64,000 nucleotides of DNA, from NCBI RefSeq assembly GCF_003334335.1, contig NZ_QOWQ01000018.1, one strand, 5' to 3'. Both the position numbers and the translations under genes were made by a program. Positions within the stretch are counted from its first letter, which is position 1; each line of letters begins with the position of its first letter. The notes beneath the pieces are model-generated. The model saw only the letters and a list, made by a program, of their open reading frames with translations, was not told the origin of the DNA and did no database searches. This document shows positions 1 to 4,095 of this stretch, piece after piece. The stretch is from Escherichia coli (GTDB taxonomy: Bacteria > Pseudomonadota > Gammaproteobacteria > Enterobacterales > Enterobacteriaceae).

Positions 1-1716
1 GAACTGGCCTACGCTCTCTGGCCTGGTGATGTGGATGCCGGAAACATTGACGGCAGCATCCATCGCTGGGCAAAAAATGAAGTTATCGACAACGACCGCG
101 AAGACTGGAAGCGTATCTCGGCATCAATGCGCAAACAGCCTGAAGCACTTGGCTATGACCGTCAGACTATTTTTGGCCTTGTCCGTGAACGTCCGATCGA
201 CATTCACAAAGATCCCGTGGCGCTGAACAAATACATCACTGAATACCTGACTACAAAGGGCGTGTTTGAAGATGAAGGAACAAATCAGAGCACAACTAAT
301 ACTCTCCCGTCGCCAGTACCAGAAGCTGATGCAGTGGAAACGGCAATGCCGGACAACGAAAAAACCGAATGCAAAGTGGAAGTCGAACCATCTGTAGAGC
401 GTGAGGGGCCGTTCTACTTCCTCTTCACCGACAAGGATGGCGAAAAATACGGTCGCGCAAACAAACTTTCTGGTCTGGAAAAAGCACTAGCCTTGGGAGC
501 TACGGAAATCACAAAAGAGGAATACTTCGCACGTAAAAACGGCACGTACTCAGGTTCACAACAAAATACTGGTGCATCTGACACGACCGCACAACCAGAG
601 CCGGTAAAAGTTACCGCTGACGAAGTAAACAAAATTATGCAGGCAGCCAATATCAGCCAGCCTGACGCCGATAAGTTGCTTGCTGCCTCTCGCGGAGAAT
701 TTGTTGCAGGGATTAGCGACCCGAATGATCCGAAATGGGTAAAGGGGATTGAAACCCGCGATTCTGTAGACCAGAACCAGCAAGAATCGGAACAGAACGA
801 CCAGAAAGCGGAACAAAACAGCCCAAATGCGTTACAAAACGAGCCAGAAACGAAACAACCTGAACCAGTAGTGCAACAGGAACCGGAAAAGATCTGCACC
901 GCCTGCGGTCAGACCGGCGGCGGCAACTGCCCTGATTGTGGCGCGGTGATGGGCGACGCAACATACCAGGAAACATTCGATGAAGAGTATCAGGTTGAAG
1001 TTCAGGAAGATGATCCGGAGGAAATGGAAGGCGCTGAACATCCACACAAGGAGAATGCTGGCAGCGCTCAGGATCACGCCAGCGATAGTGAAACTGGCGA
1101 GACGGCAGATCCCTTAATTACGGTGAACGGTCATCACGTTATCACATCCACCAGCAGGTTGTGGCACCATCTGATGATTGACCTTGAAACAATGGGCAAA
1201 AATCCTGATGCGCCAATAAACTCTCTGGCCGGTAAGTTTTTTGATCCGGCAACCGGAGAGATGGGGCCAGAATTCAGCAAAACTATCGATCTGGAAACCG
1301 CAGGCGGAGTCATCGATCGGGACACCATTAAGTGGTGGCTGAAACAGTCACGGGAAGCACAATCAGCCATTCTGACCGATGAAATCCCGTTGGATGACGC
1401 ACTGTTGCAATTACGGGAATTTATCGACGAAAACTCCGGTGAATTTTTTGTTCAGGTCTGGGGAAATGGAGCCAACTTCGACAACGTGATTTTACGCCGT
1501 TCATATGAACGGCAGGAGATCCCCTGCCCGTGGCGTTACACCAATGATCGTGATGTAAGAACGATTGTTGCCCTGGGGCTGGTGATGGATTTCGATGCTC
1601 GAAGTGTCATCACATTTGAGGGTGAACGCCATAATGCCCTGCACGATGCGCGTTACCAGGCAAAATACGTTTCAGCTATCTGGCAAAAACTGTTCCCGAA
1701 TCAGGCTGATTTTTAA
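1..1716 (+). CDS. Prophage protein, 5'-partial (reading frame open from base 1), with a C-terminal DnaQ-like DEDDh 3'-5' exonuclease domain, a central CxxC-x7-CxxC zinc ribbon and an acidic/Gln-rich linker
   Basis: Frame 1 is open from position 1 to the stop at 1714-1716. Exo motifs are visible in the translation: MIDLETMG (Exo I), WGNGANFDNVIL (Exo II), HNALHDARYQAKY (Exo III). It sits directly upstream of xis-int as in lambdoid early-left regions. Confidence 0.6.
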   Translation, partial: ELAYALWPGDVDAGNIDGSIHRWAKNEVIDNDREDWKRISASMRKQPEALGYDRQTIFGLVRERPIDIHKDPVALNKYITEYLTTKGVFEDEGTNQSTTNTLPSPVPEADAVETAMPDNEKTECKVEVEPSVEREGPFYFLFTDKDGEKYGRANKLSGLEKALALGATEITKEEYFARKNGTYSGSQQNTGASDTTAQPEPVKVTADEVNKIMQAANISQPDADKLLAASRGEFVAGISDPNDPKWVKGIETRDSVDQNQQESEQNDQKAEQNSPNALQNEPETKQPEPVVQQEPEKICTACGQTGGGNCPDCGAVMGDATYQETFDEEYQVEVQEDDPEEMEGAEHPHKENAGSAQDHASDSETGETADPLITVNGHHVITSTSRLWHHLMIDLETMGKNPDAPINSLAGKFFDPATGEMGPEFSKTIDLETAGGVIDRDTIKWWLKQSREAQSAILTDEIPLDDALLQLREFIDENSGEFFVQVWGNGANFDNVILRRSYERQEIPCPWRYTNDRDVRTIVALGLVMDFDARSVITFEGERHNALHDARYQAKYVSAIWQKLFPNQADF

Positions 1717-1777
1717 TGTTCAACCGTCGCCGGTTGTAGTTGGTATTCTGCAACTGGCGCGTTCCGGAGTGATGGTC

Positions 1778-2047
1778 ATGAGCGAACAGTACCTGATTAC
1801 GCTCGACGAGTGGAAACCTAAGCGGTTCAGTCTCCCAATAACAAACACTACCCTGGTGAAATACGGAAAACTTGGATACATCGTACCAAGACCACAAAAA
1901 ATTCGTGGTCGCTGGCTAATAGATCGCCGCGCAGTCTTTGTTGGACCGGGTGAAGCTGGAATTGCGCCGGAAATTCATACTGGCGATGATGACGCACTGA
2001 AGGAGATTTTAACCCATGTCACCGAGGCCACGAAAAAACAGTACTGA
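1778..2047 (+). CDS. xis: Phage excisionase (Xis-like, small basic winged-helix protein)
   Basis: 89-aa ORF (MSEQYLITLDEWKPKRFSLP...RGRWLIDRRAVFV) immediately upstream of and overlapping int by 32 nt. GGAG lies 10 nt before the ATG at 1778. Start chosen within ORF 1595..2047. Confidence 0.6.
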   Translation: MSEQYLITLDEWKPKRFSLPITNTTLVKYGKLGYIVPRPQKIRGRWLIDRRAVFVGPGEAGIAPEIHTGDDDALKEILTHVTEATKKQY

Positions 2048-3134
2048 CGTAGCAGCTCTTTACGAAAAGTTTGATCGCAGAACTGGCAAGGTTTACTACC
2101 AGTATAAAAATCCTGTGACTGGAAAATTTCACGGACTTGGGACAGACAAAGTCAAGGCAGAAAAAATCGCTGCAACAGCCAATCAGCGAATAGCTGCAGC
2201 AGAAGCAGAATATTTCATGCGCAAAATTGATGAAAGTCCATCAGCAACAAAACGTCGGGGTATCAGATTAAAGGCATGGGTTGATCGATATCTGAAAATA
2301 CAGGATTCGCGACTGAAAAATGGAGACATTGCAGCTACAACCCACAAAGAAAAAGTGCGAATGGCTGCATACCTGGTTTCCCGCCTGGGAAACCACCCAT
2401 TGAAAGAACTGGAGGTAAGAGACTTTGCATTAATACTGGACGAGTGGATGGATAAAGACATGGTCAGCACAGCAAGAGTAAATCGCGGATTATGGGTTGA
2501 TATTTATAAAGAAGCACAGCATGCGGGAGAAGTTCCTCCTGGATGGAATCCTCCGAAGGCTACCCGTAAACCGATCCCTAAAGTGACCAGATCCAGACTC
2601 ACCCTGGAAGACTGGCAAAAAATTTATAATGCAACGCCAGAAAAACACTTTATCCGTAACGCAATGCTTCTTGCGATTGTTACTGGTCAGCGCCGTGATG
2701 ACATTTGCCACATGCGTTTTTCAGATGTATGGAATGGACATCTACATATAACCCAAGGAAAAACCGGAATGCGTCTGGCCTTACCTCTTACGCTACGATG
2801 CGATGAAATTGGGGTATCGTTAAAAGAAGTTATTGATGGATGCAGGGACAGAATGTTGAGTCCATACCTAATCCATAGTAGGCACCAGAAACAACCAAAA
2901 CCGATGAGTAAAGACAACCTGAGCGATTACTTCGCCAAAGCGCGAGATCTGGCTGGAATAATTCCACCAGCAGGAAAAACACCGCCAACATTTCATGAAC
3001 AACGCTCCCTGTCAGAACGGTTGTACCGCGCACAGGGTGTCGATACAAAAACATTACTGGGACATAAAGTCCAGGCTACCACCGATCGCTATAACGATAC
3101 TCGAGGTCAGGAATGGGTTAAGTTGGTTATTTGA
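2016..3134 (+). CDS. int: Lambda-family tyrosine integrase
   Basis: 372 aa; the C-terminus (PPTFHEQRSLSERLY...LLGHKVQATTDRYNDTRGQEWVKL) matches the lambda Int catalytic region (R..H-x-x-R..Y pattern). AGGAG RBS lies 10 nt upstream. Confidence 0.9.
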   Translation: MSPRPRKNSTDVAALYEKFDRRTGKVYYQYKNPVTGKFHGLGTDKVKAEKIAATANQRIAAAEAEYFMRKIDESPSATKRRGIRLKAWVDRYLKIQDSRLKNGDIAATTHKEKVRMAAYLVSRLGNHPLKELEVRDFALILDEWMDKDMVSTARVNRGLWVDIYKEAQHAGEVPPGWNPPKATRKPIPKVTRSRLTLEDWQKIYNATPEKHFIRNAMLLAIVTGQRRDDICHMRFSDVWNGHLHITQGKTGMRLALPLTLRCDEIGVSLKEVIDGCRDRMLSPYLIHSRHQKQPKPMSKDNLSDYFAKARDLAGIIPPAGKTPPTFHEQRSLSERLYRAQGVDTKTLLGHKVQATTDRYNDTRGQEWVKLVI

Positions 3135-3197
3135 CAAACACCATATGGAATATCCGTCACCATCTCAGGAAAAAAGTGTTGTAAAATGCGTGGCCTT

Positions 3198-3235
3198 GTT
3201 TTGGGGAAAAGTTTTGGAGAGATTTTGGAGAAAGG
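3198..3235. repeat. Three tandem direct repeats (core TTTTGGRGA) between int stop and the potB/potC junction; candidate Int arm-type binding sites
   Basis: gTTTTGGGGAaaa / gTTTTGGAGAg / aTTTTGGAGAaagg at 3199-3207, 3212-3220 and 3223-3231, read directly from the sequence. Confidence 0.5.
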
Positions 3236-3259
3236 AAAAAATTGAATAAATTCAAAATC

Positions 3260-3304
3260 CTGAAAGTGCTCCACCTTATGAATAAGAAGGTGGAACTCGA
3301 ATGA
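3260..3304 (+). other. Putative prophage attachment-site core overlapping the last potB codons (...NKKVELE-stop) and the potC start
   Basis: Frame-2 reading ends ...LMNKKVELE with TGA at 3302-3304 overlapping the potC ATG at 3301. Upstream of about 3280 the sequence is phage (int) rather than potB. Exact core limits are not determinable without a reference. Confidence 0.35.
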
Positions 3305-4095
3305 TCGGTCGACTGCTTCGCGGCGGTTTTATGACCGCTATCTACGCGTACCTGTATATCCCAATCATTATTTTGATTGTGAACTCCTTTAACAGCTCGC
3401 GCTTTGGCATCAACTGGCAGGGTTTTACCACCAAATGGTATAGCCTGCTGATGAACAACGACAGCCTGTTACAGGCAGCGCAGCATTCACTAACAATGGC
3501 GGTGTTTTCGGCGACGTTTGCTACGCTTATCGGTTCACTGACGGCAGTTGCGCTGTACCGTTATCGCTTTCGTGGTAAGCCGTTCGTTAGCGGAATGCTG
3601 TTTGTGGTGATGATGTCACCAGATATCGTGATGGCGATTTCGCTGCTGGTGCTGTTTATGCTGCTGGGTATTCAGCTTGGCTTCTGGTCGCTGCTGTTCT
3701 CGCATATCACCTTCTGCCTGCCATTTGTGGTGGTGACGGTGTATTCGCGCCTGAAAGGTTTTGACGTGCGAATGCTGGAAGCGGCGAAAGATCTCGGTGC
3801 CAGCGAATTTACCATTCTGCGAAAAATCATTCTGCCACTGGCAATGCCAGCGGTGGCGGCGGGCTGGGTGTTAAGCTTTACCCTGTCGATGGACGATGTG
3901 GTAGTTTCTTCGTTCGTCACCGGACCAAGTTATGAAATTCTGCCGTTAAAAATTTATTCGATGGTCAAAGTCGGCGTATCGCCGGAAGTTAACGCGCTGG
4001 CAACCATATTACTGGTGCTGTCGCTGGTGATGGTTATTGCCAGCCAGCTTATTGCTCGTGATAAAACGAAAGGTAACACAGGGGACGTTAAATGA
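3301..4095 (+). CDS. potC: Spermidine/putrescine ABC transporter permease PotC
   Basis: 264-aa ORF recognised as E. coli PotC; 4-nt overlap with potD. Confidence 0.95.
   Translation: MIGRLLRGGFMTAIYAYLYIPIIILIVNSFNSSRFGINWQGFTTKWYSLLMNNDSLLQAAQHSLTMAVFSATFATLIGSLTAVALYRYRFRGKPFVSGMLFVVMMSPDIVMAISLLVLFMLLGIQLGFWSLLFSHITFCLPFVVVTVYSRLKGFDVRMLEAAKDLGASEFTILRKIILPLAMPAVAAGWVLSFTLSMDDVVVSSFVTGPSYEILPLKIYSMVKVGVSPEVNALATILLVLSLVMVIASQLIARDKTKGNTGDVK

Follow-up and report, generated by a model that had tools for sequence, protein, structure and literature searches.

The xis–int recombination module of an Sp6-like prophage at potB/potC in Escherichia coli: start codon of xis, gene overlap and neighbouring sequence

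Introduction

In the reference sequence of bacteriophage lambda (NC_001416) xis is placed at 28860–29078 and int at 27812–28882, and the two genes are annotated as overlapping by 23 nt. The pI promoter also allows lambda int to be expressed on its own, without xis (PMC2951348), and a stem-loop upstream of lambda xis has been predicted to be the terminator t5 (PMC4195576). A second described pair is XisE–IntE of PPompW, a prophage at ompW (LC567836), in which the overlap is likewise 23 nt. Among the prophages of E. coli, the potB/potC locus is the known insertion site of the Sp6 type in O157:H7 Sakai (PMC8190617), and the same site is used by Stx phages of LEE-negative STEC (PMC8065619).

Here, an xis–int pair was analysed in a stretch of 64 000 nucleotides from E. 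coli (NCBI RefSeq assembly GCF_003334335.1, contig NZ_QOWQ01000018.1), which is referred to as the window. The pair had been described in an original prediction made from the letters of the sequence, with an overlap between the genes, two possible starts for xis and a suggestion of coupled expression. The two genes, their Shine–Dalgarno sequences, the overlap, the att repeats and the prophage/chromosome junction described below all lie on the plus strand of the window.

Materials and methods

Coordinates were taken by direct reading of the window and were compared with the listing of its open reading frames. Alleles at position 1772 were counted in the 80 close relatives that carried enough upstream sequence, and substitutions were analysed in 81 relatives (28 alleles). 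A scan of viral contigs yielded relatives of 98–100% identity only; these were useful for allele counts and provided no distant comparison. Five diverged loci from Enterobacter, Salmonella and metagenomes, the PPompW module and lambda (NC_001416) were used for comparison over longer distances. Protein products were compared with PHROG, Pfam, NCBIfam and the PDB, and the occurrence of the module was counted in 5426 complete E. coli genomes.

Results

The module and its insertion site

Positions 1778–3134 were read, with a probability of about 90%, as the module for site-specific recombination of a lambdoid prophage, at its int-proximal end; in this reading xis begins at 1778, int begins at 2016 and 32 nt are shared by the two genes. 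The xis–int pair is real, ordinary and already known. The RefSeq annotation is identical, and four independent annotation records, one of them from a genome 99.9% identical to the window, give the excisionase at 1778–2047 and the integrase at 2016–3134. DNA of 93–100% identity over the full 1.8 kb was found in ∼1620 of the 5426 complete E. coli genomes.

The prophage is similar to Sp6 of E. coli O157:H7 Sakai; its insertion point is the 3′ end of potB, immediately before potC (3301–4095), which is intact. The junction between prophage and chromosome (3270–3294) comprises an inverted repeat, TCCACCTT / AAGGTGGA, around the core TGAATAAGAAGGTG. Sequence comparison with the potB–potC junction of K-12 showed that homology restarts at ∼3279 of the window, and a Salmonella relative diverges directly after AAGAAGGTG at the junction. 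Because of these two breakpoints the att crossover core is likely to be approximately TGAATAAGAAGGTG, which would correspond to the last codons of potB. Three direct repeats of the form TTTTGGRGA (3199–3233, starting at 3199, 3212 and 3223) were located between the int stop codon and potC. They are kept in Enterobacter- and Salmonella-type relatives, in which the flanking noncoding DNA has diverged, and they may be binding sites for Int, of the arm type, in the int-proximal att arm (cf. P′1–P′3 of lambda).

In the genome closest to the window (L098; NZ_CP027323.1, 1030700–1046000; 99.9% identity) the far end of the prophage adjoins yodB/zinT and not potB, which suggests a prophage-mediated chromosomal rearrangement in that strain. 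In a lambda-like layout the Xis-binding sites would be placed in the att P arm at the far end of the prophage, beyond the limits of the window.

The product of xis

The 89-residue product of xis (1778–2047) had been taken for an excisionase, and the profile searches agree in identifying it as a lambda-type excisionase (recombination directionality factor). It matched the PHROG 629 family ‘excisionase’ with an E value of 5e-26 over profile positions 2–81 of 82 and, weakly, the Pfam family Exc (PF07825; E = 9.7e-5). BLASTP aligned it with lambda Xis at 29% identity (E = 0.004), the alignment including the C-terminal LK.I motif. The gene is situated directly upstream of, and is co-oriented with, a tyrosine integrase gene having an arm-binding domain. 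None of the NCBIfam models matched Xis or Int. When the Xis sequence was compared with those in the PDB, the matches were due to chance (for example, nitrite reductase) and did not include lambda Xis. An AlphaFold model of Xis (pLDDT 71.6) was compared with the PDB by fold. The six best matches were all lambda or HK022 Xis; they fell below significance (E = 0.06–2.4), with weak scores (TM 0.33 for the query and 0.5 for the target, r.m.s.d. ∼7 Å).

The start codon of xis

Direct reading and the ORF listing confirmed the GGAG at 1766–1769, the in-frame ATGs at 1772 and 1778 and the TGA stop codon at 2045–2047. The GGAG, which is read as the Shine–Dalgarno sequence of xis, lies 8 nt before ATG 1778 and 2 nt before ATG 1772. 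The preference of the original prediction for 1778 as the better-spaced start was borne out by these distances and also by conservation in the relatives. RefSeq/PGAP and a GenBank phage record both place the excisionase at exactly 1778–2047 of the window. The homologues of 59–86% identity, which come from Salmonella, Enterobacter and metagenomes, share the N-terminus M-[STR]-[ED]-Q-[YFS]-[LM]-I; their first methionine corresponds to ATG 1778, even at the lower limit of 59%. One diverged locus (L094) has an in-frame stop codon 33 nt upstream of the xis ATG, no other start codon between the two and a GGAG 8 nt before the ATG; in PPompW an in-frame stop lies 15 nt upstream of the xis start. A purine-rich block (GGAG, GAGAG or AGGG) is found at −12 to −9 in the diverged relatives.

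The substitutions divide sharply at 1778. Among the 81 relatives, 29 of the 31 substitutions in 1778–2015 were synonymous and in the third position, whereas all three in 1772–1777 were nonsynonymous, at codon positions 1, 2 and 3, and changed the encoded pair to M-V, I-A or I-T. Purifying selection on the protein thus appears to start at 1778. On these comparisons the true start of xis is ATG 1778, with its GGAG 8 nt upstream, and the two codons ATG GTC at 1772–1777 behave as a noncoding spacer between the Shine–Dalgarno sequence and the start.

Two other accounts of the 5′ end of xis were weighed against a single start at 1778. Initiation at both ATG 1772 and ATG 1778 would give Xis isoforms of 91 and 89 residues. 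The two ATGs are in frame and both follow a GGAG in the window, and the diverged relative L097 also carries an ATG at −6; against this stand the spacing of just 2 nt between GGAG and ATG 1772 and the free variation of the two extra codons among M-V, I-A and I-T. Furthermore, position 1772 begins an ATA codon in 71 of the 80 close relatives and ATG in only nine, ATA is again found at −6 from the xis start in three of the five diverged lineages (L092, L093 and L096), and the family core begins later still, lambda Xis starting four residues further in. Dual initiation is accordingly rated as highly improbable, and the suggestion of alternative xis starts did not survive the comparison: ATG 1772 is best described, from its distribution, as a lineage-specific accident in the spacer and not as a second start. 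It is scarcely credible that the real excisionase gene is the long ORF 1595–2047 (150 residues) or a 103-residue version initiated at a GTG. The xis frame does run without a stop between 1583 and 1778 in the window, and about 24 database entries carry a call of the 103-residue kind (P0001), from a GTG further upstream. This GTG is GTA in the window, however, and the long ORF exists because the xis frame happens to be free of stops where it passes through the 3′ part of the exonuclease gene. The initial 122 nt of the long ORF fall within the exonuclease ORF 31–1716, where 1595–1716 encodes the conserved exonuclease C-terminus in another frame, and the rest of the extension crosses an intergenic stem-loop. 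In relatives the xis frame is interrupted by stop codons at −15, −33, −63 and −87, the boundaries between mosaic modules (∼1725 and ∼1760) both precede the xis Shine–Dalgarno sequence, and the substitution pattern in the xis frame upstream of 1772 is the opposite of purifying selection. The view that ORF 1595–2047 is over-extended was therefore upheld.

The int gene

The int gene (2016–3134) encodes a 372-residue tyrosine integrase of the lambda family. The N-terminal arm-binding domain was recognized by Pfam Arm-DNA-bind_1 (residues 1–64; E = 1.3e-21) and the protein was also matched by Phage_integrase (E = 1.4e-18). The identity to lambda Int is 36% over the full length; the catalytic R, K, H-x-x-R, H and Y are aligned, and the motifs VTGQR, KTG, FHExRS and LLGHK and the tyrosine are kept. 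The int frame has a stop codon 6 nt before ATG 2016 and no start codon between the two. This ATG is preceded by a Shine–Dalgarno sequence, AAGGAG (2000–2005, by direct reading), which is embedded in the xis codons Lys75–Glu76 within the conserved LKEIL motif. The spacer of 10 nt from this sequence to ATG 2016 is constant in the relatives, and AAGGAG itself is present in four of the five diverged loci, the fifth having AAAGGA.

A promoter able to express int alone was not found, either in a scan for σ70-like promoters over 1500–3400, which returned no site, or in a search near xis for the lambda CII motif TTGC-N6-TTGC, of which there was no copy between 1200 and 4400 with up to one mismatch. 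Two terminator-like sites were returned in the scan, both inside int, and such sites were no commoner there than in shuffled sequences. In the nearest full prophage the early region is of the Rac/Qin type (dicB, ydfC and the YdaT family) and cII is not annotated. In its sequence this phage type shows no lambda-like pI/CII arrangement, a point that bears on the supply of Int without Xis in lysogenization.

The xis–int overlap

The 32-nt overlap described in the original prediction, from the int ATG at 2016 to the xis stop codon at 2045–2047, was confirmed by direct reading and by the ORF listing; it measures 29 nt if the stop codon is left out. In this dual-frame region (2016–2047) the Xis C-terminus VTEATKKQY and the Int N-terminus MSPRPRKNST are encoded. 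Both ends are unambiguous because ATG 2016 is the first possible start and the arm-binding domain of Int begins at residue 1. The 32-nt overlap was present in 80 of 80 close relatives (E. coli-type loci). In the five diverged loci from Enterobacter, Salmonella and metagenomes, in which Xis is 62–86% identical, it is 26 nt, and with 23 nt in lambda and PPompW the description of the arrangement as lambda-like also held. An rspB/ynfA-type sister module with the same exonuclease gene upstream has a gap of 34 nt and no xis–int overlap. Judged by its presence across the relatives, the overlap is an inherited and conserved feature of the module and not a chance property of one sequence.

The length of 32 nt is itself, from the alignment, a derived state. 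The xis stop codon TAG of the diverged relatives, at the position equivalent to 2039–2041, is CAG in the window; the T>C change leaves Int unaltered (Asn8, AAT>AAC), and after CAG xis continues for two codons to TGA, so that the residues added are Q and then Y or H. The overlap thus grew from 26 nt by loss of an xis stop codon that was silent in int, and the two added Xis residues are unconstrained, since the last of them is either Y or H. In the first 26 nt all of the substitutions relative to the diverged relatives are silent in int and alter Xis (T>A, E>K and K>Q). This indicates that the int frame dominates the constraint, leaving the last ∼8 Xis residues free to vary. Among the 81 relatives one of the 32 sites in the overlap is variable, compared with ∼11% of those elsewhere in xis. 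Such low variability is what the use of both frames would be expected to produce.

The exonuclease gene and the intergenic stem-loop

The ORF upstream of xis (31–1716; 561 residues, incomplete at the start of the window) matched PHROG 2082 and, in part, the NCBIfam model for exodeoxyribonuclease VIII; the homologous exonuclease genes of two diverged loci (L096 and L097) contain a Pfam Rv2179c-like 3′–5′ exoribonuclease domain. The exonuclease gene lies directly upstream of xis, so the phage lacks the lambda-style accessory region between exo and xis. Thousands of E. coli prophages share the 3′ end of the exonuclease gene and then continue into other xis–int modules: after the boundary at ∼1725 the module is of the ompW type and after that at ∼1760, just past the intergenic stem-loop, it is of the rspB/ynfA type.

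The stem-loop (1727–1758) occupies the intergenic region between the exonuclease gene and xis and has its 3′ end ∼20 nt before the xis ATG. It is G+C-rich, with 12 pairs formed by CGCCGGTTGTAG and CTGCAACTGGCG around the loop TTGGTATT, and is not followed by a U-run; the equivalent stem-loop upstream of lambda xis has one. Stem-loops of unrelated sequence are found at the same position in the rspB-type, Enterobacter-type (L092 and L097) and PPompW modules. The alignable alleles gave no significant covariation (173 of 500 shuffles scored as well, with one compensatory pair), an Rfam search of positions 1–4000 gave nothing at E ≤ 1 and a literature search on the lambda tL3 terminator gave nothing directly relevant.

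Discussion

The coupled expression suggested in the original prediction fared less well than the coordinates. In such coupling the synthesis of Int would depend on ribosomes translating xis, which would open the int start or step back 29 nt to re-initiate at ATG 2016, and the ratio of Xis to Int would be fixed on the induction transcript. The persistence of an overlap across the diverged relatives (26–32 nt) and in lambda and PPompW (23 nt) favours this, as does the fact that no part of the region varies less than the overlap, but the double coding, in which the int frame prevails, also accounts for that low variability. The int gene possesses its own strong and conserved Shine–Dalgarno sequence, AAGGAG, whereas the downstream start of a coupled pair would be expected to have no independent accessible ribosome-binding site. 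The predicted folding of the 111-nt region around the int start is weaker than that of shuffled sequences (z = +1.6; 192 of 200 shuffles were at least as good), and because the region is less structured than the shuffles no unmasking of the int start would be needed. In the sister module that follows the same exonuclease gene, xis and int are separated by 34 nt and do not overlap, and a literature search yielded no report of coupling between xis and int. Lambda xis amber mutants stay Int+, which was likewise counted against coupling, as was the expression of lambda int from pI. Taken together, coupling is considered rather unlikely. Obligate translational coupling of xis and int is not supported, in that the sequence does not require it; int translation would be mainly autonomous from its own AAGGAG, modulated at most by the ribosomes that translate xis.

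It is a long shot, and one rated below coupling, that the stem-loop, recurring in at least five xis–int modules, is a control element at the RNA level. It would then be an antitermination-dependent terminator or pause, or a processing site, and would set the ratio of Xis to Int together with the overlap and the embedded int Shine–Dalgarno sequence. Were this true, the element would act in phages without the CII/pI circuit of lambda.

The two genes would close the early leftward operon, in which they immediately follow the exonuclease gene and share its orientation. They would be co-transcribed on induction, and Xis would then steer Int towards excision, as in lambda. Beyond correct annotation the analysis adds little. 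Evolutionary evidence fixes the xis start at 1778, the additional ATG and the long ORF are artefacts, and the module to which this applies is present in roughly 30% of complete E. coli genomes, the Sp6-type prophages of O157:H7 included.

Comparison with known systems

The locus shares with lambda the order and orientation of the two genes and their place in the early leftward operon, at its att-proximal end, an int Shine–Dalgarno sequence inside the codons of the Xis tail, a stem-loop before xis, and the arm-binding and catalytic domains of Int with all of the catalytic residues. It differs from lambda in the length of the overlap (32 nt, compared with 23 nt) and in Xis, which has 89 residues in place of 72, an acidic insert, PEIHTGDDD, and 3–4 extra N-terminal residues. 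A CII site (TTGC-N6-TTGC) or pI-like promoter at xis, as in lambda, was not found in the window; the nearest full prophage of the window type has a Rac/Qin-type early region and no annotated cII, and the stem-loop does not carry the U-run of its lambda equivalent. Finally, lambda is integrated at the gal–bio attB and the prophage of the window at potB/potC.

PPompW has the same exonuclease gene upstream, XisE shows 46% identity across 82% of the length, and its xis and int genes also overlap (23 nt). In contrast, its att site is ompW, its Xis has 82 residues and the sequence of its intergenic stem-loop is unrelated.

Essentially the same module is carried by the Sp6-type potB/potC prophages of O157:H7 and other STEC (excisionase WP_000003742, integrase WP_000074985), in which the gene coordinates are identical, the overlap is again 32 nt and potC is likewise the neighbour. 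The window departs from most of these relatives in having ATG and not ATA at 1772, Ala and not Thr at Xis residue 60, and Tyr and not His as the last residue of Xis.
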